Source: Euglena gracilis
Lineage: Eukaryota
Length of the DNA: 64,000 nucleotides
NCBI GenBank assembly: GCA_039621445.1
Contig: CP154954.1
Span: forward strand, 25,990,954-26,054,953
Reading direction: 5' to 3'
The position numbers and the translations under genes are program-made. Of the stretch, positions 27,865 to 62,656 are shown piece by piece (within the stretch, counting starts at the first letter, position 1; every line of letters starts with the position of its first letter). Under the pieces are notes generated by a model. The model ran no database searches and had not been told where the DNA came from. It was given only the letters and a program-made list of their open reading frames with translations.

Positions 27865-30202
27865 TCCCCCCGTTGCACAGAATCGCAACACAAATCCCTG
27901 CGTTCGCTTTGATGATCGAGTGATCACCACTCATCCTAGTGTCCAAGATCTCGTTCTCCCCGCCCTGGCCAACATCATCGCGGTATGAATCGCGGTGACA
28001 AGTGTCACTCCTCCAACCGCCATAAAGTTGGTTTCAAGACATCTTGTTTGGAGGATGACACCCCGGCTTGGGGCAGGGAGGAGGATGTAACCAGGGATAC
28101 GGATTTCGACGAAGCCCTGATGGCGGTGTGCACGTTGAAATCCGTCTATACCTCCAAAAAGCCCATAGCTGGCAACTCGGCCGTTTCGGACCGGGAGTAG
28201 GGGAACCCGAGGTCCAAGGCACGGAACTCTGGGCTGATGAACAGACGGAGGTAGGACTGGAACCCTCAACAAAAAGCACATACTTTTTGAACGCGGATAA
28301 TACCGTCCGCACATCGCGATAATGCACGTCCAGGATATCCTTGCCCGATTTCGCAGATGGCGGTTGGTTTCCCGCCAGTACACAATCGATGTACACCAGA
28401 GCAAACGGTAAATCGCGCAAAACCCACTGGATCATGCGTTGAAACATGGCTGGGCCATTCTGAACACCCATGGGGAGTTAAGTCCATTGGTACACACCCT
28501 TGGATGTCACGAATGCAGTTTTCGGTTGTGAATCAGGATGCAAATGCATCTGATGAAAACCGTCTTCCAGAACAAAGATCGACTACAATCCGTTATCCTA
28601 TTTTCTGGTTATCAACTCTTCGATCAGAGGAAACGGGAAGGGTTCATCCTTAAATTATGAGTTCAGGTACCGGTAATCCAGAACCTGCCTCCACTTCTTC
28701 TGACCAGACTGTTGAGGGGTTTGGGCACCACAAAAGCCTGTGATGTCACTCGCTCTTGGAAGGGTCGCGATTTTCGTGGTGTACTGGATAACCCAGTTTA
28801 CGCCTGCGAACATCGACCCCGCGATTCGCGGTCCCTTCGGTGTTTTCAAAATTGAGCTCAAGGATGGTGCTAAGCCCATGCACCGGAAACTGTTCAGTTT
28901 TTCAGGTGAACGCAAACAAGCTCTCAACCAGATGCTTGAGAAGCTCATATGTGGCCTTGGGGTGTTGACCAGCACTCTCAATGACTGCAGAAATTTGTGT
29001 TGAGGGTTTGGTTGTATCCCCATTGGTACCAAGGGATCTTGGCACACGCAAATCGGACATTCGGAATGTGTCAAAGAAACAAACACAAAAAAATATTTTT
29101 TCTTAATGGGTGGTAATAATATGTCACAAAAATCAGCAGGTAAATCCCACCAACGAAAACACACATAGGACAAATTTGGAAGCCAATCCGTATTCGGATT
29201 GACGGGTATGAGGAGAGCTCCTCGCGCTTCATCGCGGAAATTTTTCCCCAATACAACCAGGATGAGTTTTGGGGGAGGGTGCATCCAAAGCACCCTAACG
29301 CCCCAAAATTTAATAAATGCGTTGGTGTGTCGGGGCAATATAGCGAGAAGCGCACATGCGCTTTTGATGAAAACGCATCAATTTCCAACGACAAATCGAA
29401 AAAATCTAATCCGAGTTTTTGGAGAACCATTCCTCAAAAAAAAACGGTATTAACCAAAATGTAATTTGTTCCATACGTACATTACGTATGTGTCGACCTG
29501 GTTCGCGGGCTGAAGAGCGATAACACAATTCAGGGATCCGCAAACATAGGTCAAGGTTGTGTCATCCACACTGCAAAGGGGAAATCCCAAGGGTTGATGG
29601 GTTGTCTGAGTGCCTTCCCGGTCCACATTGTGCCAGATGGAGGTGGGGGAGGTGTGTGACATGGATTTCGCGCTCCCAAACAGCAATGCAATACCTCGTT
29701 GCTGTAGCACTTGATGTAACGTCGCGCATTGCGAGGCGCAATCAAGTGTGTGGGTGGGCGAAAACATGACTAGTGTTGGTGTTTGGAATAAAGATTAGAA
29801 TTAATAAATTCTTCGACACACTAGAAGGATTAATTAATTTTAATATTAAGAAAAATTAATTATTCGACACATTAGAAGGAAGTGTCGGAGTAGTGGTCCG
29901 GGTCGCGCATGTTGGTCTGGTGGGGGTGTGTGTAAAAGTTGGGACGCGCTTCTGTAGCTGCTGGGGGGTGTAAAGATGTATCTGAAAGCGACACATCTGG
30001 TGGAAAACTGTTTACGTTGGTTGTCACCACCCGCCGTTGGACGGCCACGGGGCAGCTCATACTACTTGCCGTGGCTCGTCCTCAGGCAGGGAACTGCGCA
30101 CATGGTCCGGCCAACCAGTGTCTCGTCCATTTGCGCAATTGCGCGCGCCGAACGATCCCCGCGGTATGCCCTCTGCCCGTAGGGATCCTTCAGGACTCAC
30201 AC

Positions 30203-30275
30203 GGCGGGACCTGGGTCTCGAACCCACGACCTCCCGCGTGTGAGCCCAGCACCTTACCGAATAAGCTACTCGAGC
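30203..30275 (-). ncRNA. tRNA-derived (Val-CAC-like) Pol III promoter segment in the TRIM 3' LTR
   Basis: GCTCGAGTAGCTTATTCGGTAAGGTGCTGGGCTCACACGCGGGAGGTCGTGGGTTCGAGACCCAGGTCCCGCC. A-box TAGCTTATTCGG, CTCACAC loop and B-box GGTTCGAGACC at tRNA spacing. Acceptor and anticodon stems are broken. Confidence 0.7.
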
Positions 30276-30893
30276 GATACTCGGCTTGGTACTACGCGCC
30301 GGCTACCAACCTCCGTAGGATCTCCCGTCTGCCGCACACACTCCCCTCCCAAGAGCCTTACTACACTAGCCCACTGCGTCACTATGGCCGTTTGCCCCTG
30401 CAGCTCGGGTTATGCCTCACACGGCCCTAGTTGGCTGAGTGCTTCTCACGAGTACTGCGTCACCAGGCTGCCGACCCCTGCAGCTCGGGTTTGCTATTGC
30501 CGGCAGTTTACGTGTTGTCGACTTCAACGGGCTCTGCCGCCTTGGAGCGTCCCCCTTTGCATCGGCTTGAGACTTTGGAACGGTGTAGGAGTTTCAGTCG
30601 CCCTAGACTCGGCGCGTCCGCCTCCGCCTTCCGGGCGCCGTGGGGTCAGGCTCTGATTTACCGGTTCGTGTTGCATTAGACGGGTTCCCCTGCTACGATG
30701 TTTACGTTGGTTGTCACCACCCGCCGTTGGACGGCCACGGGGCAGCTCATATTACTTGCCGTGGCTCGTCCTCAGGCGGGGAACTGCGCACATGGTCCGG
30801 CCAACCAGTGTCTCGTCCATTTGCGCAATTGCGCGCGCCGAACGATCCCCGCGGTATGCCCTCTGCCTGTACGGGATCGTTCAGGACTCACAC

Positions 30894-30966
30894 GGCAGGA
30901 CCTGGGTCTCGAACCCACGACCTCCCGCGTGTGAGCCCAGCACCTTACCGAATAAGCTACTCGAGC
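30894..30966 (-). ncRNA. tRNA-derived Pol III promoter segment in the TRIM 5' LTR
   Basis: Second copy of 30203-30275, differing by one substitution. Confidence 0.7.
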
Positions 30967-31628
30967 GATACTCGGCTTGGTACTACGCGCCGGCTACCAA
31001 CCTCCGTAGGATCTCCCGTCTGCCGCGCACAAAAACCTGGTATTGGTGCTGCTGGGCGACTACGCGACACCGTACCTACTTCAGGCCTTCGGGATTTCGA
31101 CTTGAAACCCAGTGGAACGAGGGGGACACCGCTGCTCGCTTACCCTGCCTCATGGGGTACGGTAGTTGGTGTAACAATGGGCATGGGGGTAACTTTCTCG
31201 GTCCACCGGGTGTAGAAAACGTTTGTAGGTATAGTTGGTAACGGGGAAAATCTTTTTGGAAAACGGTATAGAAACGGTATGGTCGTCGCGGTTGACGCCA
31301 CAGGTGATGAGAGTTTGTGGGGCAACGAACAGAATGGTGATGTGCGCAACCCATGGGAGTGCCAATCCACTACCAGCCGGTGCTGACATAAAAAGGGGTA
31401 TCCCAGAATTACTTCAGAACCATGGATTCCGGATTTATATCCCCATGTATCTGGAAAAATTTGCGGGTGGGGGGGCTGTGTGTGGTGCTTTGGGAGGAGG
31501 GATAGGACAATGTCCAAAAGGCATCCCAACTCACCACTACACATGGTGGTGATTCCCACTGACACTGGTTGTCGCACTGCACTGCTTTTTAGGTTTGGCT
31601 TCATATCGACCCTCCTCTTGACGGCTGG

Positions 31629-42622: not shown

Positions 42623-42830
42623 TGGACGTCTGATAATATTCTTTTGTTTTTCTTGAAATCCTTGCACTCCCAATTTTCTTGAAATCCCAATTGACCAAAA
42701 GAAGTAAACACAAATCAATGTGAACACATAGAACCGAAGCCAGCAGTCTGCGGGGGAAAAGTTCGAATTAGGAATACAAAAGTCAGTTCGGCAGTTGGTA
42801 AGGTAAGTAGGTCAGCAAATAGTTCGCACA
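42623..42830 (-). repeat. 3' LTR of element B
   Basis: Direct repeat of 57743-57950; GGGGGG immediately upstream on the minus strand. Confidence 0.85.
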
Positions 42831-43221
42831 CGCCCCCCATGCCCGAGGACGCGGTGCCACAGGCACAGGACGAAACGGCATCACACCACAAAACAACATG
42901 GCTTACTGTTTTCAAGCGCTGATGAATGGTGTTCAACACGAATTGTCCACAAAAAGGTTCAAAACGACAAATGTCAACACAAAGGAAGGTAAAAGACGTT
43001 ACTTCCGACAATCACCGTGGTCCCTTCGCTTCGTGGTTGGCTTGCCATTCAAAGGTAACACAAACCTGGGCGAAACTCCTCGCATCAATGGCAGGTTTGT
43101 GACTGAAAGCCTTCAAAGGTTAGACAACAATTCACCCATGGCGAGGCCGGTTGGTGTCTCCTGACCCATAAAAAAACATCCAAAAGGCCCCCTGGTGGAC
43201 TTTCCTCCCGCGTGACTGAAA

Positions 43222-46200
43222 GGGGGGGTAGATCTGGCCTGGGGGGGGGGGGGGGTAGTGGGCCGACCCTAGGGTCGGCCCAATACGACCCTGGGGTCGC
43301 TAAAGTCGCTAAAGTCGCTAAGGTCGCTAGGGTCGCAGTGGGCCGACCCTAGGGTCGCCCATCCTAGGGTCGTGGGCCGACCCTAGTGTCGACCCTAGCG
43401 TCGGCCCACCCCACGACCTCGCCCCCCCCCCATTCAAAAAAAATTCAAATTTTTTTGATGTTTTAGGCCTTCAAACACAAAGAAAACAAACTAAGAAAAA
43501 TTAATATTGATTACTGATGCTAAAATACACCCCAAAATCACTACGTGACACAAGGGATTAGGTGATTTTGGGGCATTTGAACAGTTGCGCAAAACGAGGG
43601 ATTTGCCCCCCAAAATGACTTGAAAACACAACGGACTTGCCCACCAAAACGACTTGGAGACACAAGGTATTTTATTATTTTCGGGCCCCCGATCAGATGA
43701 ACAACACAAAGAATTTGCCCCCCAAAACAACTTGGAAACACAAGGGATTTGCCCCCCAAAACGACTTGGAGACACAAGGGATTTTTTTATTTTGCGGCCC
43801 TCGATCGGTTGTACAACACAAGGGATTTGCCCCCCAAAACGATTTGTAACCACAACGGACTTGCCCCCAAAAACGACTTGGAGACACAAGGGATTTTGTT
43901 ATTTTGGGCCCCTCGATCAAACGAACAAAACAACGGATTTACCCCCCAAAACGATTTGGAACCACAAGGGATTTGCCCCCCAAAACGACTTCGAGTCACA
44001 AGGTATTTTGTTATTTTGGGGCCCTCGATCGGTTGAACAACACAAGGGATTTCCCCCCCCCAAAGCGATTTGAAAACACAACGGACTTGCCCCCAAAACG
44101 ACTTGGGGACACAAGGGATTTTTTTTTGGGGCCCTCGATCAATTGAACAACACAACGGATTTACCCCCCAAAATTATTTTGAACCACAAGGGACTTGCCC
44201 CCCAAAACGACTTGGAAACGCAAGGGATTTCTTTATTTTGGGGCCCTCGATCAGTTGGACAACACAACGGGATTTACCCCCTAAAACAACCTGGCCACAC
44301 AAGGGATTTGCCCCCCAAAACGACTTGGAGACACAAGGTATTTTTTACTTTGGGGCCATCGATCGGTTGAACAACACAAGGGATTTGCCCCCCAAAACGA
44401 CTTGGAAACACAAGGGATATTATTAATTTCAAGCCCTCGATCAGTTGGACAACACACGGGATTTGCCCCCCAAAACGACTTGTAAACCCAAGTGATTTGC
44501 CCCCCAAAACGACTTGGTGACACAAGGGATTTTGTTACTTTCGGGCCCTCGATCAATTGAACAACACAACGGATTTACCCCCCAAAACGACTTGGAACCA
44601 CAAGGGATTTGCCCCCCAAAACGACTTCGAGTCACAAGGGAGTGTATTCTTTTGAAGCCCTCGATCGGTTGAACAACACAAGGGATTTGCCCCCCAAAAC
44701 AACTTGGAAACACAAGGGACTTGCTGCCCAAAACGACTTGGAGACACAAATGATTTTATTATTTTGGGGGCCTCGATCGGTTGAACAACACAAGGGATTT
44801 CCCCCCCCAAAACGACTTGAAAACACAACGGACTTGCCCCCCAAAACGACTTGGGGACACAAGGGATTTAGTTTTTTTGGGGGGCCCTCGATCAGTTGAA
44901 CAACACAACGGGATTTACCCCCAAAGCGATTTGGAACCACAAGGGGTTTGCCCCCCAAAACGACTTGGAGTCACAAGGGATTTTATTATTTTGGAGCCCT
45001 CGATCGGTTGAACAACACAACGGATTTGCCCCCCAAAACAACTTGGAAACACAAGGGACTTGCCGCCCAAAACGACTTGGAGACACAAGCTATTTTATTA
45101 TTTTGAGGCCCTCGATCGGTTGAACAACACAAGGGATTTGGCCCCCAAAACGACTTGGAAACACAAGGGATTTTGATATTTACGGGCCCTCGATCAGTTG
45201 GACAACACAAGGGATTTGCCCCACAAAAACACCTTGGAAACACAAGGGATTTGCCCCCCCAAACGATTTGGAGACACAAAGGATTTTGTTATTTTGGGGC
45301 CCTCGATCAGATGAACAACACAACGGATTTACCCCCCAAAACGATTTAGAACCACAAGTGATTTGCCTCCCAAAACGACTTGGAGTCACAAGGGATTTTA
45401 TTATTTTGGGGCCCTCGATCGGTTGAACAACACAAGGGATTTCCCCACCAAAACGATTTGAACACACAACGGATTTGCCCCCTAAAACGCCTTGGGGACA
45501 CAAGGGATTTTGTTTTTTATTGGGCCCTCGATCAATTGAACAACACAACGGATTTATCCCCAAAACGATTTGGAACCACAAGGGCTTTGCCCCCCAAAAG
45601 CACTTGGAGTCACAAGGGATTTTATTATTTTGGAGCCCGCGATCGGTTGAACAACACAAGGTATTTGCCCCCAAAAAAAACGTGGAAACGCAAGGGATTT
45701 GCCCCCCAAAACGACTTGAAGACACAAGTGATTTTATTATTTTGGTGCCCTCGATCGATTGAACAAAACAAGGGATTTGCCTCTCAAAACGACTTTGACA
45801 CACAAGGGATTTTATTATTTTGGTGCCCTCGATAAGTTGGACAACACAAGGGATTTGCCCCCCAAAACGACTTGGAGACACAGGATTTGCCCCCCAAAAC
45901 GACTTGGAGGCACAAGGGATTTTGTTTTTTTGGGCCTCGATCAATTCAAAAACACAACGGATTTACCCCCCAAAACGATTTGGAACCACAAGGGATTTGC
46001 CCCCCAAAACGACGTGCAGTCACAAGGGATTTTATTATTTTGGGGCCCTCGATCGATTCAACAACACAAGGGATTTCACCCCCAAAACGATTTGAAAACA
46101 CAAAGAACTTGCCCCCCAAAACGACTTGGGGACACAAAGGATTTTATTATTTTGGTGCCCTCGGTCGGTTGAACAAAACAACGGATTTGCCCCCCAAAAC

Positions 46201-49200
46201 GACTTGGAAAAACAAGGGACTTTTGTATTTTCGGGCCCTCCATCAGTTGGACAACACAAGGGATTTGCCCCACAAAAACACCTTGGAAACACAAGGGATT
46301 TGCCCCCCAAACGATTTGGAGACACAAAGGATTTTGTTATTTTGGGGCCCCCGATCAGATGAACAACACAACGGATTTACCGCCCAAAACGATTTGGAAC
46401 CACAAGGGATTTGCCCCCCAAAACGACGTGGAGTCACAAGGGATTTTATTATTTTGGGGCCCTCGATCGGTTGAACAACACAAGGGATTTCCCCCCCAAA
46501 ACGATTTGAAAACACAAAGAACTTGCCCCCCAAAACGACTTGGGGACACAAGAGATTTTATTATTTTGGTGACCTCGATCGGTTGAACAAAACAAGAGAT
46601 TTGACCACAAAACGACTTGGAAACACAAGGGATTTTATTATTTTCGGGCCCTCGATCAGGTGGACAACACAAGGGATTGGCCCTACAAAAAAACCTTGCA
46701 AACACAAGGGATTTGCCCCCCAAAACTATTTGGACACTCAAGGGATTTTGTTATTTTGGGGCCCTCGATCAGTTGAACAACACAAGGGATTTACCCCCCA
46801 AAACGATTTGGAACCACAAGGGATTTGCCCCCCAAAAACGACCTCGGTTCATAAGGGATTTTATTATTTTGGGTCCCTCGATGGGTTGAACCACACAAGG
46901 GATTTGCCCCCCAAAACGACTTGGAAACACAAGGGATTTTGATATTTACGGGCCCTCGATCAGTTGGACAACACAAGGGATTTGCCCCACAAAAAAACCT
47001 TGGAAACACAGGGGATTTGCCCCCCAAAACGATTTGGAGACACAAGGGATTTTGTTATTTTGGGGCCCTCGATCAGTTGAACAACACAACGGATTTACCC
47101 CGCAAAACGATTTGGAACCACAAGGGATTTGCCCCCCAAAAACGAATTGGATTCATAAGGGATTTTATTATTTTGGGTCCCTCGATCGGTTGAACAACAC
47201 AAGGGATTTCCCCCCCAAAACGATTTGAAAGCACAACGGACTTGCCCCCCAAAACGACTTGGGGACACAAGGGATTCTGTGTTTTTTTGTGCCCTCGATC
47301 AATTGAACAACACAACGGATTTACCCCCCAAAACGATTTGGAACCACAAGGGATTTGCCCCCCAAAACGACTTGGAGTCACAAGGGATTTTATTATTTTG
47401 GGGCCCTCGGTCGGTTGAAGAACACAAGGGATTTGCCACCCAAAACAACTTAGAAACACAAGGGATTTGCCCCCCAAAACGCCTTGGGGACACAACGGAT
47501 TTTATTATTTTGGTGCCCTCGATCGGTTGAAAAACACAGAGGGATTTGCCCGCAAAAACAACTTGGAAACACAAGGGATTTGCCCCCCAAAACGACTTGG
47601 AGACACAAGGGATTTGCCCCCCAAAACGATTTGGAGACACAAGGGATTTTGTAATTTTGGGCCCTCGATCAATTTAGCAAAACAACGGATTTACCCCCTA
47701 AAACAACTTGGAACCACAAGGCATTTGCCCCCTAAACGACTTGGAGTCACAAGGGATTTATTATTTTGTCGACCTCCATCGGTTGAACAACACAAGGGAT
47801 TTGCCCCCCAAAACGACTTTGCAACACAAGGGATTTGCCCCCCAAAAAGACGTGGAGTTACAAGGGATTTTATTATTTTGGGGCCCTCGATCGGTTGAAC
47901 AACACAAGGGATTTCCCCCCCCCAAAACCATTTGAAAACACACAGATCTTGCCCCCCAAAACGACTTGGGGAGACAAGGGATTTTTTATTATTTTGGTGC
48001 CCTCGATCGGTTGAACAAAACAAGGGATTTGCCCCCCAAAAAGACTTGGAAACACAAGGGATTTTATTATTTTCAGGCCCTCGATCAGTTGGACAACACA
48101 ACCGATTTGCCCCACAAAAACACCTTGGAAACACAAGGGATTTGCCCCCCCAAACGATTTGGAGACACAAAGGATTTTGTTATTTTGGGGCCCTCGATCA
48201 GATGAACAACACAACGGATTTACCCCCCAAAACGATTTGGAACCACAAGGGACTTGCCCCCCAAAACGACTTGGATTCACAAGGGATTTTATTATTTTGG
48301 GTCACTCGATCGGTTGAACAACACAAGGGATTTCCCTCCCAAAACGATTTGAAAACACAACGGACTTGCCCCCCAAAACGACTTGGAGACACAAGGGATT
48401 TTGTTTTTTTTGGGCCCTCGATCAATTGAACAACACAACGGATTTACCCCCCAAAACGATTTGGAACCACAAGGGATTTGCCCCCCCAAACGACGGGGAG
48501 TCACAAGGGATTTTATTATTTTCGGGCCCTCGATCGGTTGAACAACACAAGGGATTTCCCCCCCCCCAAACGATTTGAAAACACAAAGAACTTGCCCCGC
48601 AAAACGACTTGGGGACACAAGGGATTTTACTATTTTGGTGCCCTCGATTGGTTGAACAAAACAAGGGATTTGCCCCCCAAAACGACTTGGAAACACAAGG
48701 GATTTTATTATTTTCGGGCCCTCGATCAGGTGGACAACACAAGGTATTTGCCCCCCAAAACGATTTGGACACACAAGGGATTTTGTTATTTTGGGGCCCT
48801 CGATCAGTTGAACAACACAACGGAATTACCCCCCAAAACGATTTGGAACCACAAGGGATTTGCCCCCCAAAAACGACTTGGATTCATAAGGGATTTTATT
48901 ATTTTGGGTCCCTCGACCGGTTGAACAACACAAGGTATTTGCCCCCCAAAACGACTTGGAAACACAAGGGATTTGCCCCCCAAAACGATTTGGACACACA
49001 AGGGATTTTGTTATTTTGGGGCCCTCGATCAGTTGAACAACACAACGGATTTACCCCGCAAAACGATTTGGAACCACAAGGGATTTGCCCTCCAAAAACG
49101 CCTTGGATTCATAGGGATTTTATTATTTTCGGGCCCTCTATCGGTTGAACAACACAAGGGATTTCTCCCCCCCAAAACGATTTTAAAACACAACGGACTT

Positions 49201-51418
49201 GCCCCCCAAAACGACCTGGGGACACAAGGGATTTTGTTTTTTTTGGGGGCCCTCGATCAATTGAACAACTCAACGGGATTTACCCCCAAAACGATTTGGA
49301 ACCACAAGGGATTTGCCCCCCAAAACGACTTGGAGTCACAAGGGATTTTTTTATTTAGGGGCCCTCGATCGGTTGAACAAAACAAGGGATTTGCCACCCA
49401 AAACAACTTGAAAACACAAGGGATTTGCCCCCCAAAACGCCTTGAGGACACAACGGATTTTATCATTTTGGTGCCCTCGATCGGTTGAAAAACACAAGGG
49501 ATTTGCCCCCAAAAACAACTTCGAAACACAAGGGATTTGCCGCCCAAAACGACTTGGAGACACAAGGGATTTGCCCCCCAAAACGATTTGGAGACACAAG
49601 GGATTTTGTAATTTTGGGCCCTCGATCAATTTAACAAAACAACGGATTTACCCCCAAAACGACTTGGAACCACAAGGCATTTGCCCCCTAAAAGGCCTTG
49701 GAGTCACAAGGGATTTTATTAAGTTGTCGACCTCCATCGGTTGAACAACACAATTGATTTGCCCCCCAAAACGACTTTGCAACACAAGGGATTTGCCCCC
49801 CAAAACGACTTGGAGTCACAATGGATTTTATTTTTTTGGTGCCCCCGATCGGTTGAACAACACAAGGGATTTGCCCCCCAAAACGACTTGGGGACAAAGG
49901 GGATTTTGTTTTTTTTGGGGGGGCCTCGATCAATTGAACGACACAACGAATTTACCCCCAAAACGATTTGGAACCACAAGGGATTTGCACCCCAAAACGA
50001 CTTCGAGTCACAAGGGACTTTATTATTTTGGGGCCCTTGATCGAATTGAACAACACAAGGGATTTACCCCCCAAACAAAACATGGAAACACGAGGGATTT
50101 GCCCCACAAAACGACTTGGAGACACAAGGGATTTTATTATTTTGGGGCCCTCTATCGGTTGAACAAAACAAGGGATTTGCCCCCCAAAAGGACTTGAAAA
50201 CACAAGGGATTTTGTTATTATCGGGCCCCGGATCAGTTGGAAAACACAAGGGATTTGCCCCCCAAAACGACTTGGAACCACAACCGATTGGCCCCCCAAA
50301 ACGACTTGGAGTCACAAGAGATTTTATTCTTTTGGGGCCTTCGACCGGTTGAACAACACAAGGGATTTGCCCCCCAAAACGACTTTGCAACACAAGGGAT
50401 TTGCCCCCCAAAACGACTTGGAAACACAAGGGCTTTTATTATTTTAGGGCCCTCGATCGGTTGAACAACACAAGGGATTTGCCCCCCAAAACGACTTGGA
50501 GACACAAGGGATTTTAATATTTTGGCGTCCTCGATCGGTTGAACAACACAAGGGATTTGTGCCCCAAAACGACCTGGCAACACAAGGGACTTGCCCCCCA
50601 AAAGACTTGGAGACATAAGGGATTTTACTATTTTGGGGTCCTCGATCGGTTGAAGAACACAAGGGACTTGCCCCCAAAACAATTTGGCAACACAAGGGAT
50701 TTGCCCCCCAAAACGACTTGCAGACATAAGGGATTTTATTATTTCGGGGCCCTCGATCGGTTGAAAAAAACAAGGGACTTGCCTCCCAAAACAACTTGAA
50801 AACACAAGTGATTTGCGCCCCAAGACGACTTGGAGACACAAGTGATTTTATTATTTTGGGTCCTCCGATCGGTTGGACAACACAAGGGTTTTGACCCCCA
50901 AAACGACGTGCAAACACAACGGACTGGCCCCCCCAAAACGACTTGGAGACACAAGGGATTGTAATATTTTGGGGTCCTCGATCGGTTGAACAACACAAGG
51001 GATTTGTGCCCCAAAACGACATGGAAACAACCGGGATTTCATTATTTTGGGGCCCTCGATCAGTTGGACATCACAAGGGATTTGCCCCACAGAACAATTT
51101 GAAAACACAAGGGACTTGCCCCCCAAAACGACCTCAAGTCCAACCTCAAGTCCAAGTTCAATTCCTGTTCAAATGGGCAAAAAAAATTCTCCACAATTTT
51201 TTTGTGGGGGAGGCGAGGTCGTGGGGTGGGCCGACCCTAGGGTCGGCCCTACGGTCGGCCCACGACCCTAGGACGGTCGACCCTAGGGTCGGCCCACTCC
51301 ACATCCTGGGGGAGGGGGTCGACCTTAACGACTTTAGCGACCCTAGCGACCCTAAGGTCGTATTGGGCCGACCCTAGGGTCGGCCCACTACCCCCCCCCC
51401 AGGCCAGTTCTGGGAGCC
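43222..51418. mobile_element. Non-autonomous Mutator-like (MULE/foldback) TIR element carrying a satellite array
   Basis: ~220-bp TIRs (43222-43447 versus ~51195-51418), GG...CC ends, and a 9-bp direct repeat TGACTGAAA at 43213-43221 and 51419-51427. Confidence 0.8.
43549..51135. repeat. ~7.6-kb satellite built from 34-bp and 44-bp monomers
   Basis: A = CACAAGGGATTTGCCCCCCAAAACGACTTGGAGA; B = CACAAGGGATTTTATTATTTTGGGGCCCTCGATCGGTTGAACAA. Mostly AAB or AB order. Confidence 0.95.
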
Positions 51419-51541
51419 TGACTGAAAGCACGATCAAAATATTTGGGGGGGGGGGCTGTCTCTTGTGATGCCAACTCCCATTCACATTTCGAAACGTCGC
51501 AAAACATTCTGAGCGCCTGGCGTAGGACCGATTGCAAATTT

Positions 51542-54500
51542 TTATCCACAATAATTCTTGAAAACCTCATTCATTCTGCCTCCTGGTTGCACAAACGAAG
51601 CCACAGGCTCCCATGTACTGCCGCTTGCCGGAAAATTCTCCAACCAAACCAAAAATTTCCATCCCCCTTGGTACTTCTGCTTCAACATCTGGTAAACATT
51701 GTAAAAACCCAGTTGTGCTTGTTCTTCTTCTGACATCTGGAGGGGAGGTTCCCCTCCCTGGTCTGACATGGGGGAGTCACCCTCCACTGGGGCTTCCACA
51801 ACCACATCACCGGTCAAAAGGTCTGCGTCTTCTTCCAAAAGACTTTCTTCGTGCAAAGCAACCTCCCACTTTTTTGCACAAACCCAAAGAGACATAAATG
51901 ACCCCTCCCAAAGATGGACTGCTTGCAATTTGCACTGAATTGAACCTCGATTTGAGAACCCGAAAAAGTCCTTGCCAGGGGGGGAAAGCTTGTGCCATGA
52001 TTTGTTTGGCCATCTTTTGTTGTGCACCAAAACATAGTCATCTTCTTGAATTTTGGCTGGTACCCTCTCTTTGTTTGCACTCTCAAAATGTTTTTTTTTC
52101 TCAATTCTTTCAACCTCTGGGAAGCTCTTTCTTTAATTTCAACTTGGTTCAAAGCCAGGAATGGGTTTCTGGGTTTGTCGCTTGTTCTGGTGGTAATTCA
52201 AACCTCCAACCTGGTCTTCCTAAAAACCCCATTTCATGGGGTGATAACATTGTTGTGCGGGAAATCTGTCAACCTATCAAAACCGTGCAATACGGAATAA
52301 GTTGAACCCAATTTTTGTCCTTGACAGAAAGGCTCAAAGCTCTCATATTCTGCAAAAACATTTTGGTGACATTTTCAACCAAACCGTTTGACCTGGGGTT
52401 CCAGGGTAACGAAAACAAAAATTTCACGTCTAGAGCTTTAAAGGCTGTCTGGTAAAAACCACTGGGCTGCCTGAATCTCACGTCGTTGTCAGACCTCACA
52501 ACGGACGGTTTTCCAAAAACAGAAATCCACCGGTGCAAAATAAGTCTCAAAACACCTTCTCCGGTTAGCGTTTTTTGTGTGGGGATGAATTGGCAAAAAT
52601 GGGACAAATTGTCGACCATAGTCAGCACATAGTCAAATCCATTGTAGGGGTCCATTTGCACAAAATCCAAACACAAAAATTCATTGCTCACTGTTGGAAT
52701 CGGTAAAGAACCCACCTTTCCACGGTGACTGGGGCGATTTTGTTTTGAAATGGGGCAAATTTCATATGTCATCACAATGGCTTTGCAAATTTCCAACATG
52801 TCTTTCTTGGAAACCTTGGACTGAAAATGGCTCAAAAAAAACAACAGTGTCCTTTCAGCACCAACATGGTTGCTTGCCCTGTGACATTCATCCAAACAAA
52901 CCTTCAACAAATGAGACAGAACAACCAATTTTCCTTCACAGTACATGGCCTTGGCAGATCTGAACCAAAACTCATTGTCAATGAAACAAGGTTTCGAAAC
53001 CTCCACTTTCTCCAAAAATTATTTCAGTTCTGAACTTAAATATTGCTTTTCAGACACTTGCAATCTGGGGGACAAACTGAAAATCTTTTGCCAAAGCAGG
53101 TCAAACTGCACATCCATTTTCTGAAAAGCGTTCCTTGTTTCTTCCTGAAAACGAATTTCAAATTTGTTTGTTTTGTTCTCAAAATCAGCACGAGACAAAA
53201 AATCACACAGCTCATTTTTGCAACCTGCCACATGCACGATATTCAGTTTGAACTGGTGCAAAAACACATACATCCTTCTCAGCATTTTGTTTAGGGGGGG
53301 GTTCACCCTTCAGAAAAGAGGTGGCTGCCTCATTTTTTGTCATCCACACAATTGGCAGATTTTGCAAATCCTTTTTTGTGAAGCAATGGTCAGCACACCA
53401 CTCAAAAATTCCTTTTCCCAGGTGGTGTATTTTTTTCTCGCCTCATTCCATTTCCAGTTGTAGTGCCCCAAAGGAACCAACCTCATTTCACTGGGGTAGT
53501 TGCTTTTCAAGGTTCCATCCACTTTCACACCACTTGTTCGAAAATTGTCAGGTATTTGTGTTTGTTGGAGGGTTTGCCACTGAAACAAAGCAGAACCACC
53601 TCCCAAATCCGAACTGTCAGTCACCAAAACAATCTCTCCTGAACTCCTGGGGGTACCCAAAACATCGAGGGATGATAATTTGCTTTTCAAAGCATTCAAA
53701 CAACTCTCCTTCTTTTCAGTCCACCTCCATTTCACATTCTTTTTCAGAAGATATTTCAGTGGGGCTGAATCAAAGATAAACCCTTTCATGTGTCTGCGGT
53801 AAAAATTCATGGCTCCCAAAATTCGCCTAAGATCCCTTTGATTCTGAACTCGAAAACTCAAAATTAGTTCAATGTTCCTCTTGTTTGCCTGCCACATTCC
53901 CCATCCCAAAGAGAAGCCCAGGTAGTCAATAGTCTGATTCAGAAAAGAACGTTTGCTCAATTTGATTCTCACTTGGTTCTTTCTGCAAACTTCAAACCAC
54001 TTTTCCAAAACATACAAATGGTCCTCCTCAGAATTCGCACCAAGGCAGGGGTGGTCAACAACCTGTTGTCAGTAGGAAAGCCAGTGTCCCACCTTTTCAA
54101 AATCTCTCTCACTCTCAAATCCGTTTTGCATTGGGATGTTAGGATTTCCATCAACTCCTGAAAAATCCCTGGGGCATTCATCACCCAACCAGTTACATCT
54201 TTTGGTCCTTATTATTGGATCTAAAACACCTCCCTTAAAGAATGCAAAATGCAGACAAATTTGCTGCTCTTTTTCTGATTGGGATTTGCCAATACCCACT
54301 CCTCATGTTCAGCGTACTTTTGAACCGACACTTGGCCAAACTTTCAATCAGAATTTCCATGTTTGGAAAAAAACCTGCAAGTGCTTTGCCTCTGGAATTC
54401 AATTTTCCATAATGAATGACCAACCTTCTGGTACTTGACCCTTTTTTGTCCACCAAAAATGTGGGGCTGCACACCTGATGGATTTCACCAACTGGGAATT

Positions 54501-56286
54501 GCTCAAACAACCCTGACTTAAGCAATTCTTCACACTGAATGTCAATGTCTTTTTCATCCTCCTGGTGCATGGGCCAACACTTTTGCCTTAGGGGTTTCCC
54601 TTCCCATTCAGTCTCAAACTCGATTTCCATCAAAACAGGCAGGGATGAAGCCTCAGAAATTGTGGGCAATGGTCCAAAAACATCAGAAAATCTCACCAAA
54701 AGCTCATACAACCTGGGGTGGTCTCTGAATTTCTCAACTTCTTTCTTAAATTCTCCACTCAGGTTCTCAGTAAAAAATTTGCTGCTTTCTTCATTAGCCT
54801 TTTTCTGGGCCTCCAAAGTCCACATCTTTTCATGTAAATCTTGGGAAATGCTTTTGACTTCAGCCATCTTGATTGTTGCCTTTGGAGTCTTCATAGGTTT
54901 TGCAAACTGAATAAAAAAAAAAAATTGGAAAAAAAAAATGAAAAAAAAAAAAAAACAATCACTTTCTACATCTTTTCTCACCTCCTGAAAAAGACTCAGC
55001 TCACTTTCAATGTCCTTTGTCAATTCAGCCAAAAAAAATGAAGTTTTCATGCTCACTCATTGGTTCAAACACCACCACATTGTCCAACCATTCTTTCACC
55101 TTTCTTCTGACTCCTTGGGGCGAACACTCTCCAAAGGAAAACTTGGACTTTAAAAAACTTTCTGGGCTGAAGGTGGATTGACAGATTGTTGTGCATGCTG
55201 CTGGGGGGGGGGAACATCAGGAAGATCTGGGAAATCAACTTGAATTTCATTATCCACGGTGGGGTACTTTCTGTTCTCACCTCTCAGTTCATCCAAACTC
55301 CAGTTTCTTAAAACTTTCCTGAGCCAACTGACAATTCTGGGGTCCAAAAGCTCAAAATCCACTTTTAATTGCACTGTGTCCACCACACTCACAAAAGTGT
55401 TCCACAGGGTGGAAGGAAAAGCCTTTTTACACCTGTCACCCACAAACAAGGGAACCCCACTCGGAATTTTCTCCCTGGCAACCGTTACCCTTTCCAGCAG
55501 GGGGGACCAGTACTGGTCCACCCAGTCTGGGTGCACCAGGACCACTTTTGTTTCTTAAAGGCACAACTTGGTCACCACTTTGCTTAGTTGGCTGAAGAGG
55601 TGGTTTGCCCACAGAAACTTGCAAGCACCAATGTCACACAACAATTTTTCCCAGGAATACTTGTAGGCTGAATTCCCTTTCGTCATGTACAAAGACTGTG
55701 TGTGGTTCAGGTGGTTTGCAAAAGGATCAATGCAAATTTGGCCCTGAGAATTCTTCAATTCTTCCAAAGCTTCTGACTTCACTGGCTTTACCAAAGTGTA
55801 ACTTTCTGTCTTGAAAAGTCTGAAAATTCTTTTGATAGTGTGGTCTCCATCATGGCTCTGAAGTAAAAACTCCTCACCCTCGATGATGATTCTGGGGGGT
55901 CTGGTCAGCAACCCTCCAAAAAACTCACTCTCTGTGAAGTCAGTCCCCAAACCTGCCTCAAAGGCACAAGTATCCACCACAACAGCTTTCAATTTCAAAA
56001 TCTTGGACCCAAACTGCAAACACATCTCACAAGTTCCTTCTGAGAAAATGTACTCGCCGTTGCCGATTTGCAGGGGTGCGGCAGCACTTCGTTGAATTTT
56101 CCCCTCAGGGTCACACTTCTTACAAACTGCAGTGATGATGGCCCCTGTGTCCAAAATGGCTTGAACATCCTTTCCATAAACCTTCACTGGCAAAAGGTAA
56201 GTTTTACACACCATCTCGAGCAATTGCAAAGCATCAGCTTTTCTCTTTTTGGGGTTCTCACCCTGGGGGGTAACCTGGGTTTGCAC
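51542..56286 (-). pseudogene. pol: pol of element B: protease, Dam-like MTase, RT, RNase H, integrase, chromodomain (frameshifted)
   Basis: AILDTGA (AP); IDPFAN..YSW..LWANHLFSQL..VLVHPDW..YW (MTase); SPTFLVDKK..RLVIHYGKLN..MRSGYWQI (RT); LVTDSSDLGGG (RH); CHRASNHVG..CLDFV..RSDNDVRF..SNGLVE (INT); FLVWLENFPASGSTWEP (chromodomain). Confidence 0.9.
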
Positions 56287-56359
56287 TCCCTGGGGTTGAA
56301 CAGAAGGGGTCCCCTTACCTGCCCCCTTCTGGGCTGCTGCCTTCTTTTTCTCAAACTTT

Positions 56360-57306
56360 TCTCTTGACCAACATTTGTCTTCATAATGCCCTTTTTTGTG
56401 ACAAAATCGACAGAAAATTGTGGCTGCAAATCATGGGGCTGGGGTGTCATCAGCTTTTATTTCACCCTTGCCTTTGCCTTTTCATTTGCCTCTTCCTTTT
56501 CCACCAGATTTTCCACCTTTTCCAGATTTTGTGACACTTTCACCAACTTTTTCTGATTGGTCAGGTGGTCTTTCAATCAGGGGTCTGAGTTTTTTTTTTT
56601 TCAGCAAATTCCTCTACAACCAATCTTCAGAACTTTTTTCCAAAAATGTTTTCCTTAAATCTGTGAATGTCTCAGAACGATGTTGATGAAATCTGTCTGC
56701 CCTTATGTCCGCATACATTCTGGGGTGTAATTTCGTCAGCAAAACAAGAAACTTTTCCTGTTCACTCATGGCCTGGGGGCTCAATCTGGCCATCAAATTG
56801 TCCAACTCAATGAAACGTTTTTTGATGTCTTGGGGTTCAGGGTTCTGTGAAAGTGCTGGAAATTTCTCAATGGCAGATCTTAAAGTCATGTCATTTTCCA
56901 GTGTTGGGAACAGTTTTGCAATTTCCAACAGCACCATTTCAAAATCATCATTCTAATCAATCACTTTTTCAACCTGTTTTTTCACCTTGGGGGTGCAACA
57001 TTCCAACAGCCAATCCTTTTTCTGGACAATTCCAAATGCAACAGCACCAGTTAACCTCAACCATCTGCCAAAATCTTTCAAAAACTCTGGCCAGTTTGCA
57101 CCAGCAAACTCTGGCAATTTCACAGGGGGTAATCTTGAACTTTGGGTTGAACTTTGGCTGGGGTTGCTGGAGTTTGGTTCCACAATTTGTTTCAAAAATG
57201 TTTCAACCTGGGTGATGGGGTTCAGGGTAAACACAGACTGACTGCTGGTGGCTGATTTGATTTCCAATTCTTGCACCCTTCTTTCCAAATCTTCAATGGA
57301 AGACAT
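56360..57306 (-). pseudogene. gag: gag of element B
   Basis: PPVKLPEFAG.NWPEFLKDFGRWL capsid-like segment; CCHC knuckle CRFCHKKGHYEDKC at ~56370-56415; internal stops. Confidence 0.8.
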
Positions 57307-57742
57307 TTCTGCAGCTCACTTTCAAAAAACTCAACTACTGGCTCTTTGAAACTGGACACTGGGAAAAACACTGGCAAACCCAAAAAGGTGAATAAAACTG
57401 AAGAAACCAGAACAGAAAACCAACCACTTGGCTCAGGACCAGGTCAGCAAGATGATGAAGATCTTGTCTCCACCAGGATCTTGTTCTGGACACCAAGAAG
57501 AACTGCAGCACCAGCAGCTTCAACAACCAAGTAACCAGCACAACAACTGTTGAAAAATTCTCCACTGTGAACCACAGCCTCAATGTCAACTTCGTGTTGA
57601 AGATGTTGGGCTGTACCAGCAACTGGGTTAACTTTGCCTTCAGGAAGTACACCTTCTGGAACTTCAACAACCAGTAGAACAATGACCAGTCTCTTTGAAG
57701 ACGTCTTGGACGATTGGAACAACAAACCTCTGCGACCAACTT

Positions 57743-57950
57743 TGGACGTCTCAGAATATTCTTTTGTTTTTCTTGAAATCCTCGGACTCCAAATTTTCTG
57801 GATATCACAATTGACCAAAAGACGTAAACACAAATCAATGTGAAGACATAGAACCAAAGCCAGCCGTCAGCGGGGGAAAAGTTCGAATTAGGAATACAAA
57901 AGTCAGTTGGGCAGTTGTTAAGGTAAGTAGGTCAGCAAATAGTTCGCACA
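57743..57950 (-). repeat. 5' LTR of element B
   Basis: TGTGCGAAC...GACGTCCA, followed after 4 nt by the PBS. Confidence 0.85.
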
Positions 57951-58111: not shown

Positions 58112-58498
58112 TGTGCGCAGCCTGAAGCCTGAATTAGGACTGAGCGCGCGCGCTGCACACTGTAATATGTGCTTTTTATGTTCAGTCAAACCTCATGAGT
58201 TGATTGCTGGGCCCATGGGTCGTGGCCCCTTGGCATATATCTGGACCATGGGACTAACTGAGGACTTGGAGATTTGAGTTTTGTGCTGTGGTTGAAGTTT
58301 GGAAATTTGAAGTGGAAGTTGCTTGCCAATGGGTGGCAAAGCAAGGCCCAAGGCGAAGGCAAAACCCAAGGCAAAGCCAAAGCCAGCCAAACAGGGGGCC
58401 CGGGGTTGGGCGGCGGAAAAGGTGTGGATTGCGAAAAGAACCCCCACCCCCGGCGAAGCCCCTGTTTCACAATCAACTCACCTGTAACGACCAGGCGG

Positions 58499-60878
58499 AT
58501 GACACAGTGGAGCATGCTGGACTGTTGCATGCACCAGTGGTGCATCCTGGCGCTGGACATGGTCAACATGTTCAAGATCCACATTCCGGTCATGGGCCAT
58601 GCCGCAGATGCACATGTGGTGCTTGCTGCAGATGTGTGGGACGCACATGGAGTGCACGCCGCAGATGCCTCACCTGCACATTGGGCGCATCCTGGGGATG
58701 GCCTGACTGGAGCTGGAGATGGAGACGACGGAGATGTGCATGCAGCGGAGGCCAGGTCGGGGCAGGTGGTGGATTGTGTGTGGCGGACAGCCTTTTTTAG
58801 AGCAATATCCAGAGATTTCTGAATTAGGCATTGCCAGAAAAAAAGGGTTCAGACCAAAATCTTAATCTGGGAATTTTGTGTTTCATTCTGTATTACAGTG
58901 GCAGCCTATGGCAAACAGTGTATCAGTTTGCTTGGACTTGTTCATGGGCATTGGCAAATCTTCAGGATTTGTTCCCCTGCTGTGCAAAAGATTTTGGAAA
59001 CTCCAGTGATGCAGGGGGAAAACGCCAGTGGAAAAGACCAAGTTGGCAGTAGGAGACTGTCCAGCAATGCACATTACAAGTTTGGCCTGGGCCAGAAGTT
59101 TGTCACCCCAAGTGTCATTAGACAAGAGCTGTCATAACATGCTGAGCCGAGGACCCCAAACACACACAACCTGATATGAGAGTTGTCCAGTACAAACGAT
59201 AATGTTGGGCCACGAAGGGGATTGACACTCATACTGTGATCTGGTGGTCTGACATTACATTGTCATTGGTGGGCCAATGGCTGCAGAGGCTGGCAGTACT
59301 TTGCACTGTACGGTGCTGCAAATGTCGTTGAAGATTGCATGTCATTGTCATTGAACTGGAGATGGTGATGAGCCGTGAGGCACGTACAACAGAATCGAGC
59401 ACAGGTGGAGCATCGAGATGAGCCGTGAAGCACGTACTGGAGAACGAGATAGTGGTCATTTGGTGCCTTGTACATCCCAGTTGTTTACCATGGGTTGTGG
59501 GTCAACCGATAAAACCATTTGCCGTGAAGATTTGGCATTGATGTGACGCTGCCTGCTGGTGGTGTTCTGCGGCAGTAAACGTCGCGGTTTGATCGTTTTC
59601 TCCGTCTTCGTCTTCTGCGTGTCTGTCTATTCTCCATGTTCTGCGAGGGGCTCAGTGTCTCGTCTGTCCGCTGTGCTGCGAATGCCTGGGCAATTGCGCA
59701 GCAATTGTTCAGGAAGGGAGGGGGGGTGGCGGACAGCCTTTTTAAGAGCAATCTCCAGAGATTTCTGAATTAGGCATTGCCAAAAAAAGGTTCACACCAA
59801 AATCTTAATCTGGGAATTCTGTGTTCCATTCTGTATTACACTGGCAGCCTATGGAAAACAGTGTATCAGTTTGCTTGGACTTGTTCATGGGGATTGGCAA
59901 ATCTTCAAGATTTGTTCCCCTGCTGTGCAAAAGATTTTGGAAACTCCACTGATGTAGTGGGAAAATGCCAGTGGAAAAGCCCAAGTTGGCAGTGAGAGAC
60001 TGTCCAGAATTGCACATTACAAGTTTGGCCTGGACCAGAAGTTTGTCACCACAAGTTTCATTGGACAAGGGCTGTCATAACATGCTGAGCCGAGGACCCC
60101 AAACACACAGGATGCCCTGGCCAGGCATGCTGAAGTTGGACAGGATGGAGACACGACCCGGCCCCGTACAACCACTCAGGGTTTGGCCACTCAGAAAGCC
60201 GGCTGTGCTTCGGCCGCCGAGAGAGGGTCCCCCAGAAGAGTTTCGGACGCTGTGGGGACGCGCAACATTTCGCTTGACGACATTGGGGATGACGACATGG
60301 GGCTCGCCGACATCGTGGATGACGGAATTGGGAATGCTGACATCGAGAATGGCGGCATTGGGCATGCAGCTGCAGACCACAACAGTGCTCCGGCCGTTAG
60401 GGCAAGGGAGATCAAAACCGACAGCCGTGCTGCGGCCGCTGTGGTCCCTGAGTTCGCCAATGTGGGTGCCGTACCGACGGAGATCTAAACCCCCAGCTGT
60501 GCTTCGGCCGCAGGGGTCACTGAGTTCTCCGCCCTAGCGGTGACTGGAATCCTGCCTGGAGAAGGACGGAAGTGTGATGGATTTTGCTGGGCTGATCTGG
60601 GATGCCACTGTGGGATAAGTGACAGCCAGCCCAATGTCGGTGGGCAGGACATCTCCGAAGTACCACCTGGAAGCAGTGCATCGTCGCCCAGGGGGGAGGC
60701 TCCGCCGGCAGCAGTGGACGAGTCCATAGCGGAGGCTCGACGACTGGCTGTGCGGTACGAGCGGGAAGCCCGAGATCGACACTGGGATGCGCTGTCGGAG
60801 ATAAGGCCGCTGACGGAGACGTTGAAGCGAAAGAGGCGGAAGGACCGCCTGCTCCACCACCAGGGATGGTGGGAGTGA
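58499..60878 (+). pseudogene. Orphan Asp/Ala/Gly-rich ORF inside element C, split by element D
   Basis: Removing 58775-60113 joins ..SGQVVD|ALARHAE.. in frame with ORFs 60183 and 60540, with one internal stop. Confidence 0.45.
58775..60109 (+). mobile_element. TRIM-like LTR element D
   Basis: ~390-bp direct repeats (58775-59168 and ~59721-60109), PBS-like TGATATGAGAG at 59172, PPT AGGAAGGGAGGGG at 59711, and flanking GGAT duplication (58771-58774 and 60110-60113). Confidence 0.75.
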
Positions 60879-60972
60879 GAGGGGGGAGTGGCCGAACCGA
60901 ATAGGCGGCCCGGGTAACGGGCGAAGAATCCCCCCCGTCAGCCTTCCTGTTTAGAGTTGGCCTGCATTTTGG

Positions 60973-62233: not shown

Positions 62234-62656
62234 GAGGTGTTCTGGCTGCACAGAGAGTCATTTATAAATTACCCAGCAATTTTCGTGGTGAGGTGAGTGT
62301 GCGCAGCCTGAAGCCTGAATTAGGACTGAGCGCGCGGGCTTCACATTGTAATCTGTGTTGTTTCTGTTCAGTAAAATGTCATGAGTTGATTTCTGTGCCC
62401 ATGGGTCGTGGCCCCCTGGCACATATCTGGACCACGGGACAGACTGAGGACTTAGAGACTTGAGTTTTGTGCTGTGGTTGAAGTTTGAAAATTTCACGTG
62501 GAAGTTGCCTGCAAATGGGTGGCAAAGCAAGGCCCAAGGCGAATGCAAAACCCAAGGCAAAGCCGAAGCCAGCCAAACAGGGGGCCCGGGGTCGGGCGGC
62601 GGAAAAGGTGTGGATTGCGAAAAGAGCCCCCACCCCGGCGCCGCCCCTGTTTGACA

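Follow-up and report, generated by a model that had tools for sequence, protein, structure and literature searches.

A mini LTR retrotransposon of 1023 bp with its sense on the minus strand (30009-31031) was found in the window, that is, in the whole stretch of 64,000 nucleotides analysed. Its anatomy can with good confidence be assigned to the Helenus-type TRIMs (TRIMp3), as a non-autonomous LTR retrotransposon, and each of its LTRs contained a 73-nt module which very probably has a tRNA origin. From its letters, the module is predicted to be a working Pol III promoter, and doubt and confidence in this prediction are about evenly balanced.

Element anatomy, insertion borders and family

The LTRs, of 332 bp (30009-30340; the 3' LTR in element sense) and 333 bp (30699-31031; the 5' LTR), were direct repeats with 97.9% identity over 333 columns and had TG..CA termini. 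Their MAFFT alignment reproduced exactly the 6 substitutions and 1 indel counted in an earlier note on this DNA, and the complete 1023-bp mini LTR element proposed there was borne out by the LTR repeats, the TSD, the PBS, the PPT and an empty site. The TSD AAAAC was read, as claimed, at the left (30004-30008) and right flank (31032-31036), and both copies were borne out by contigs. The minus-strand PPT and PBS-like signals each adjoined an LTR border exactly: the PPT GGGAGGGGAG (30341-30350, reverse complement) was directly upstream of the 3' LTR, and the putative PBS (30682-30698, read from 30698 to 30682) directly downstream of the 5' LTR. The internal region of 358 bp (30341-30698) was non-coding by the ORF listing; it contained two sub-repeats of ~43 nt (30373-30415 and 30454-30494). 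Recognisable coding content was absent, as had been noted before, in a check which consisted of a stop-to-stop ORF listing and a search for relatives of one frame: only stop-to-stop frames were listed, and the 140-aa frame through the LTR had 0 matches among 11 candidate proteins. No other copies of the element were found in the window (word size 9, E up to 0.01).

The insertion had hit a high-copy host repeat unrelated to the element, whose left half (29865-30008) was matched by many contigs and whose right half (31037-31340) was likewise found in contigs; the window held no second copy of this repeat. One contig of run X1 joined 30003 to 31032 and so skipped 1028 bases (1023 + 5); at the joint, 5 letters could be assigned to the left or to the right. 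Contigs which reached 30008 and then continued like 31037 onward were found in runs X1 (n = 24), X14 (n = 12), X19 (n = 1) and X15 (n = 4). Uninterrupted copies of the flanking repeat therefore exist, and the insertion borders are exact to the base.

The element family is high-copy and diverged. Contig records on 29700-31340 (1641 bp, host repeat flanks included) at 80% identity or more numbered 3236 in X1 and 1282 in X14; contig depths can neither rank parts of the LTR nor give copy number. Contig cover was low at 30085-30139, subject to the same limit on ranking. Both LTR/internal borders were bridged by diverged contigs of X1 and X14, and the whole tRNA-like segment was bridged in its LTR context by at least 3 pieces among the matches listed (X14 record 8, 30153-30376; X1 record 7, 30769-31002; X14 record 15, 30834-31022), with 0-1 gaps and 24-34 mismatches. 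Since these pieces came from both X1 and X14, the module has been kept in place in diverged copies under two organism labels. The RNA-library runs X19 and X15 also held pieces of the element, which indicates presence only, with no start visible; an X19 contig of 661 nt consisted of one LTR and one interior, the unit expected from a repeat cycle, with DNA carry-over possible. Metagenome contigs gave 0 matches to the exact 20-nt PBS stretch and 0 to the exact 22-nt B-box stretch.

The PBS of this copy begins TCG. Contigs with the change G>C at 30697 were found in X1 (n = 31; depth 89119.5 of 89168.4), X14 (n = 25), X19 (n = 1) and X15 (n = 1), and with C at this position of the plus strand in nearly all family contigs, the PBS of the family begins TGG, which is the complement of the ...CCA end of a tRNA. 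This private G>C difference at the second position of the PBS, together with LTRs 1.8% apart, makes the present copy old and probably dead.

The tRNA-like module of the LTRs

The module occupied LTR positions 66-138 on the minus strand of both LTRs, after 65 nt of LTR: 30894-30966 in the 5' LTR, with the A box at 30948-30959 and the B box at 30905-30915, and 30203-30275 in the 3' LTR, with the A box at 30257-30268 and the B box at 30214-30224. Within the LTR the two boxes are at positions 73-84 (A) and 117-127 (B). This agreed with the tRNA-Val(CAC)-like segment of 73 nt described earlier about 65 nt into each LTR, the anticodon-loop position of the module reading CAC. The A and B boxes, which the earlier note had called intact, were indeed so in both LTRs: box A read TAGCT..CGG and box B GGTTCGAGACC, in accordance with the Helenus patterns TRGCY..YGG and GGTTC. 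The A plus B box pattern matched the two LTRs only, and 0 of 100 shuffles. All the invariant tRNA positions (14/14) were matched in canonical spacing, compared with 11/14 in the next best 73-mer of the window (127,856 73-mers); the 14-position pattern likewise matched the two LTRs only and 0/100 shuffles, and no further tRNA-like module with 2 or fewer mismatches to it was found in the window.

The cloverleaf stems had been described as broken, which held in part: 6 of the 21 stem pairs were broken and the minimum-energy fold of the module was two hairpins, not a cloverleaf, but the breakage was only partial, with 15/21 pairs remaining; 0.34% of 73-mers had as many pairs or more. The check with an Infernal-type tRNA model was also mixed. 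The Rfam tRNA model aligned end to end (positions 1-71), but its scores of 16.9 bits (5' LTR) and 15.8 bits (3' LTR) were below the gathering score of 29; the printed Rfam E of 4.1 is a value multiplied by 4227 families. With default settings ARAGORN reported 0 tRNA genes. With 80% thresholds it found the site, called as Pro agg of 83 nt, and as this was one of 73 relaxed matches in the window it lent no support to tRNA identity. A functional tRNA gene was rejected on the default ARAGORN result, the Rfam score, the broken pairs and the fold.

Chance as the source of the tRNA likeness, or a local duplication mimicking LTRs as the source of the whole structure, would agree with the sub-threshold Rfam score and the negative ARAGORN result. 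Set against this were the match at all 14 invariant positions with a maximum of 11 elsewhere in the window, the shuffles (0/100), the exact empty site with its 5-bp TSD, a family of thousands of contigs, and a PPT and a PBS at the exact LTR borders; such an origin is very improbable and close to refuted.

Relation to Helenus and other known elements

The earlier suggestion that the element may be of an undescribed class did not hold. TRIMs with tRNA-derived LTR sequence were given the name Helenus and placed beside Cassandra and Ajax in the group TRIMp3 in the available text of Kojima 2024 (PMC10886601). Since Helenus was named in 2024, the Euglena element is not a new class and opens none; its novelty, if any, may be the host lineage. 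Table 1 of that paper lists fungi, animals and Selaginella only as Helenus hosts and includes no protists, and its main text is without the words Euglena, protist, Discoba and Euglenozoa (PMC10886601). No euglenid report of a tRNA-bearing TRIM was found in the literature searched, and this is probably the first Helenus-type element from a euglenid. The alignment of eukprot:EG_transcript_27322 to the gypsy element of the window makes a euglenid origin of the DNA plausible.

With two LTRs, a short non-coding interior and 1023 bp in all, the element was within the total length of 311-1263 bp given for Helenus in the available text, where families reach up to 1263 bp although the screen had a cutoff of <1000 bp (PMC10886601). 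As in Helenus, the interior had a PBS at its end next to the 5' LTR and a PPT at its end next to the 3' LTR, and the AAAAC duplication, the empty site and the thousands of diverged contigs accorded with a mobile multi-copy family making a TSD of 4-6 bp; fungal and plant Helenus, where the available text describes them, also have 5-bp TSDs. The PBS was not complementary to the module, as Kojima found in the portion covered here, and fish Helenus modules were likewise aligned to tRNA-Val-CAC, according to the legend of Figure 2 (PMC10886601). The element differed from the Helenus of the available text in its host, probably a euglenid as against fungi, animals and Selaginella, in its LTRs of 332/333 bp, slightly longer than the longest reported LTR (323 bp; PMC10886601), and in a family which appears very abundant. 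An origin independent of known Helenus, which were compared by description only, is likely.

The comparison with Cassandra made in the earlier note was apt, both being TRIMs whose LTRs carry the internal Pol III promoter of a small-RNA gene and which are mobilised in trans. The module is of tRNA type here (A and B boxes), unlike the 5S type of Cassandra (box A, IE, box C), and an Rfam scan of 29500-31500 with E up to 10 gave no 5S rRNA match. Cassandra transcripts end within the 5S-derived portion of the 3' LTR, with an R region of 18 bp, as far as the available text goes (PMC10886601), whereas there was no T-run in the present element; the 5S-derived sequence and LTR terminator that mark Cassandra were thus both lacking. 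SINE2 elements are similar in that their head derives from a tRNA whose A and B boxes are intact and whose cloverleaf has decayed, and in that the terminator would come from the flank. The SINE2 plan of tRNA head, body and tail without LTRs was not found, in that a LINE-type or A-rich tail was missing and the module lay inside LTRs with a PBS, a PPT and a 5-bp TSD, which argues for mobilisation by LTR-element machinery and not by target-primed reverse transcription. Ordinary TRIMs and SMARTs (TRIMp2) are of similar size and have the same architecture, are likewise non-coding and also need a partner, but are without a small-RNA-derived LTR module.

If the host is a euglenid, tRNA-promoter TRIMs (Helenus/TRIMp3) reach a fourth, very distant eukaryotic supergroup, which would support repeated capture of Pol III promoters by LTR parasites. 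In practice the element can serve the annotation of the repeat-rich Euglena genome, where tRNA-like LTR modules can mislead the annotation of tRNAs and SINEs; such misannotation occurred in rust fungi, according to the available text of Kojima 2024 (PMC10886601).

Predicted transcription, priming and mobilisation

That there is no AAA on the plus strand of the element, and that the first TTTT of the sense strand is in the flanking TSD (30007 to 30004), had been noted before and was found on recount; the sense strand was accordingly without TTT throughout its 1023 nt. As an argument for Pol III this was weak: when the 690-nt non-redundant unit was shuffled with its dinucleotides preserved, 593 of 2000 shuffles lacked TTT and 1847 of 2000 lacked TTTT. 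The absence of T-runs is thus expected from composition and uninformative for Pol III, and T-run avoidance was rejected as evidence of it. A long transcript made by Pol III would nevertheless require a sense strand free of TTT.

In the proposed explanation, the A and B boxes of the 5' LTR would recruit TFIIIC and TFIIIB, and Pol III would initiate at LTR position 66 or slightly upstream of it. With no run of 3 or more T on the sense strand, the transcript could extend through the internal region and the entire 3' LTR, and would end at the first T-run of the flank, here the TTTT of the TSD. Such an RNA would begin with LTR positions 66-333 and finish with a complete LTR, and this partial and full LTR would provide the terminal redundancy for first-strand transfer. 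Cassandra is a validated Pol III TRIM, whereas for Helenus itself transcription by Pol III is stated to be unvalidated, in the available text of Kojima 2024 (PMC10886601). Taken whole, as a Helenus-type TRIM with a tRNA-derived module and predicted Pol III transcription, the proposal could about equally well be right or wrong.

The module could also be a passenger: the head of a tRNA-derived SINE, or a tRNA pseudogene, would have inserted into an ancestral LTR, and its remnant would have been passed on to both LTRs in each later cycle. The element would then be transcribed as ordinary TRIMs are, by Pol II from the LTR or by read-through from neighbours. This is a serious possibility, if not a probable one. 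Insertion of a SINE2 into an LTR has been proposed as the origin of Helenus (Kojima 2024, PMC10886601, in the available text). SINE heads already have intact boxes and broken stems at capture, so that selection on the boxes within the LTR would be needless, and the composition of the element leaves T-run absence without bearing on the matter. A transcript of ~960 nt or more would be long for Pol III. The LTR RNA was also very strongly structured (z = -5.26; 0/100 shuffles folded as well), and in the predicted LTR fold the letters of the anticodon arm paired outside any cloverleaf, with the 10 nt that directly follow the module. Against a passenger, no tail and no private TSD were seen around the module when the sequence was read, so that the SINE landed in an LTR with its own TSD and tail, which the earlier note had named as the finding that would tell against it, was not encountered. 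The module was moreover preceded by only 65 nt of LTR, and the retention of 14/14 invariant positions with 6/21 pairs broken had a probability of ~0.15 under ~14% neutral decay, by a calculation of our own which assumes a parent with perfect stems.

A module functional in some capacity other than promoter of the element, as a TFIIIC insulator or boundary or as an upstream element for divergent Pol III transcription, is improbable. In trypanosomatids, the A and B boxes of tRNA genes drive neighbouring small-RNA genes divergently. Intact boxes and a host that is probably euglenozoan would fit such a role, and it has been noted that TRIMp3 elements could conceivably have regulatory functions like those of SINEs (Kojima 2024, PMC10886601, in the available text). 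A divergent layout, on the other hand, would yield antisense or flank transcripts of no evident use to the element.

Returning to the module as Pol III promoter, an independently evolved, Pol III-driven and terminator-less LTR family in Euglenozoa, and with it the first TRIMp3 from a host that is neither plant, fungus nor animal, is a tentative and rather doubtful conclusion. If true, every LTR, including solo LTRs, would fire transcripts stopping at the first T-run downstream, and massive amplification would have made the family a sizeable part of the 2.4-Gb genome. It could also add to the tRNA predictions for Euglena gracilis, whose genome was given as 32.7% unclassified repeat with 4882 predicted tRNAs in the available text (PMC11252322).

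Under the same proposal, the first strand would be primed at the PBS by a host tRNA ending in ...CCA, and the second by the PPT. The PBS presumably resembles the initiator-Met type. Self-priming by the module was rejected, as the PBS complement and the module shared only GGGTTC and 554/1000 shuffles scored as well. Reverse transcriptase and integrase would be supplied by some autonomous LTR element which makes a 5-bp TSD. The gypsy element of the window was rejected as this partner, with no LTR similarity by BLAST. It shared with the mini element the LTR start TGTGCG and a similar PBS-like word, too little for partnership, and over 54630-53973 of the gypsy element eukprot:EG_transcript_27322 aligned over all of its 210 residues, in three pieces with 84, 81 and 62% identity.

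Structure of the TRIM

The mini LTR retrotransposon (TRIM) was 1023 bp long (30009-31031), was bounded by direct repeats, and had the minus strand as its sense strand. Direct-repeat comparison placed its LTRs at 30699-31031 (upstream in sense, minus) and 30009-30340 (downstream in sense, minus), and their alignment exactly reproduced the difference reported in the earlier note (6 substitutions plus one 1-nt indel). Both repeats started with TG and ended with CA, on either strand, and AAAAC copies of the TSD stood directly before and after the element (30004-30008 and 31032-31036). A PBS-like word (30698 to 30682, minus) adjoined the upstream LTR, and the purine run GGGAGGGGAG (30350 to 30341, minus) adjoined the downstream LTR. 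The LTR ends, the TSD and the minus-strand PBS-like and PPT signals that had been described were all present at the borders, and the observation of the element is confirmed.

The interior was 358 bp and contained two sub-repeats of about 43 nt. Reading frames were stop-to-stop only, as usual in G+C-rich DNA, and a 140-aa frame across the LTR gave 0 matches among 11 candidates in the protein collection. Of the 6 substitutions that separate the LTRs, four were CpG to TpG/CpA transitions, a bias that fits the heavy cytosine methylation of Euglena repeats stated in a passage of a 2026 preprint.

The tRNA-like module and its relation to Helenus

Each LTR carried a 73-nt tRNA-like module at LTR positions 66-138 (30966 to 30894 in the upstream and 30275 to 30203 in the downstream LTR, both minus). 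The Rfam tRNA model aligned end-to-end with both (16.9 and 15.8 bits, respectively), below its gathering score of 29, with an E-value of 4.1 that is already multiplied by 4227 families. The module followed the standard layout of a 73-nt tRNA: the D loop had 8 nt, the variable loop 5 nt, and the anticodon position read CAC. A combined A-box and B-box pattern matched the two TRIM LTRs only and 0 of 100 shuffles, and so did 14 invariant positions at fixed spacing (0 of 100 shuffles); both patterns were written post hoc, from general tRNA invariants. The B box alone was unremarkable (0.7 matches on average in shuffles). Among the 127,856 73-mers of both strands, the TRIM LTR sites scored 14 of 14, and no further site in the window had 2 or fewer mismatches (none at 12 or 13, 24 sites at 11). 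The module kept 15 of 21 cloverleaf pairs; 0.34% of 73-mers had that many. It is very probably tRNA-derived.

As a tRNA gene the module was rejected: ARAGORN found nothing there at default settings, the Rfam score was sub-threshold, and the minimum-energy fold consisted of two hairpins. At 80% thresholds ARAGORN did find the module, as one of 73 matches in the window and with a different anticodon call.

Folded as RNA, the upstream LTR (30699-31031, minus) was unusually structured, with an MFE of -164.2 kcal/mol (z = -5.26; 0 of 100 shuffles folded as well). The anticodon-arm letters paired with the 10 nt that immediately follow the module, in a long hairpin with the T arm at its tip.

TRIMs with tRNA-derived sequence in their LTRs were described as Helenus by Kojima in 2024, in passages of PMC10886601 that give fungi, six animal phyla and Selaginella as hosts, a size of 311-1263 bp and TSDs of 4 or 5 bp, and that place Helenus in TRIMp3 together with Cassandra and Ajax. 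The Euglena TRIM agreed with Helenus in every structural criterion, whereas it differed from Cassandra, which has a terminator inside the LTR, in having none there. The earlier note had proposed a possibly undescribed class, a tRNA analogue of Cassandra; its structural anatomy stands, but the design was already in print, and the TRIM is an additional element of the type that Kojima described. The main text of PMC10886601 had none of the words Euglena, protist, Discoba and Euglenozoa, and a literature search on Helenus, TRIMp3 and Euglena LTR retrotransposons returned no euglenid report among the matches listed. The host lineage is probably new for Helenus-type elements. According to PMC11252322, LTR elements make up 21.8% of the E. 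gracilis genome and unclassified repeats 32.7%, and 4882 tRNAs were predicted in it.

Insertion site, family and possible transcription

Logan contigs of four public sequencing runs were matched to window 29700-31340 at 80% identity or more (contig records: X1 3236, X14 1282, and 21 and 53 in the RNA libraries X19 and X15). One X1 contig joined 30003 to 31032 and skipped 1028 bases, that is, the TRIM plus one TSD copy, with 5 letters fitting either side. Further contigs matched up to 30008 and continued with sequence like that from 31037 onward (X1 24, X14 12, X19 1, X15 4). The TRIM is thus nested in an abundant host repeat (29865-30008 and 31037-31340), other copies of which are uninterrupted at exactly that site, which pins down the borders as well as the TSD of 5 bp. 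Most host-repeat contigs differed from the window at many positions, and a second copy was not found within the 64 kb. An A+T-rich stretch of about 100 bp (29764-29866), with a palindrome and two direct copies of a 39-nt sequence (29791-29829 and 29842-29880, 79%), was skipped in two X1 contigs (joint 29763 to 29867), and so resembles a small, rare insert within this host repeat.

Both LTR/interior borders were bridged by listed X1 and X14 contigs about 10-15% diverged from the window, so the short interior is characteristic of the family and no isolated deletion. Contig joints also revealed shorter interior variants, and sub-families with the PBS-proximal third of the LTR replaced. Position 30697 (+ strand) was C in nearly all family contigs (X1 31 contigs, depth 89119.5 of 89168.4; X14 25), so that the family PBS starts with TGG, the complement of the tRNA ...CCA end. 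The window's copy had a private change there, and its LTRs were 1.8% apart; it is aged and probably inactive.

The earlier note had also argued for Pol III from the lack of sense-strand T-runs. No AAA occurred on the + strand inside the TRIM, and the first sense-strand TTTT was that of the TSD, but the inference is weak because the sense strand was only 16% T. When the 690-nt non-redundant unit was shuffled with its dinucleotides preserved, TTT was absent in 593 of 2000 cases and TTTT in 1847 of 2000. A Pol III transcript that began at the module and ended in the flank would have the redundant ends that strand transfer requires, which would make the mechanism feasible. A Pol III step is plausible, at about even odds; for Helenus, the text of PMC10886601 explicitly calls Pol III use not yet validated. 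RNA-library contigs (X19, X15) indicated the presence of TRIM pieces only, and a 661-nt X19 contig amounted to one LTR plus one interior, as from a repeat cycle in the assembly graph. Another X19 contig, ending at 30903, matched from the LTR start through the B box and then continued with 151 nt of unrelated sequence; it could be another element with the same tRNA-like head, or a rearranged copy.

Other repeats in the window

Two nested direct-repeat pairs occupied 58112-62656, one of 387 nt (58780-59166 and 59726-60109; 93% identity, 946-nt spacing) and one of 360 nt (58112-58471 and 62298-62656; 91% identity, 4186-nt spacing). Both pairs may represent further small LTR elements; the invariant-pattern search found no tRNA-like module in either.

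A degraded Ty3/gypsy element lay at 42623-57950 (minus). Its LTRs were 208 bp long and 93% alike (42623-42830 and 57743-57950), with no matching TSD seen around them, and its minus-strand frames at about 51.4-56.4 kb matched Pfam protease, RT/RNase H and integrase. A protein labelled eukprot:EG_transcript_27322 matched the element over all of the protein's 210 residues, in three pieces (84, 81 and 62% identity), a match consistent with Euglena or a near relative as host. The LTR start TGTGCG was common to this element and the TRIM, and the PBS-like TGGTCGCAGAGG lay 4 nt inside its 5' LTR. A satellite array of about 7.5 kb (43547-51119) lay between the gypsy LTRs, with a 112-bp unit composed of 78-nt and 34-nt sub-units.
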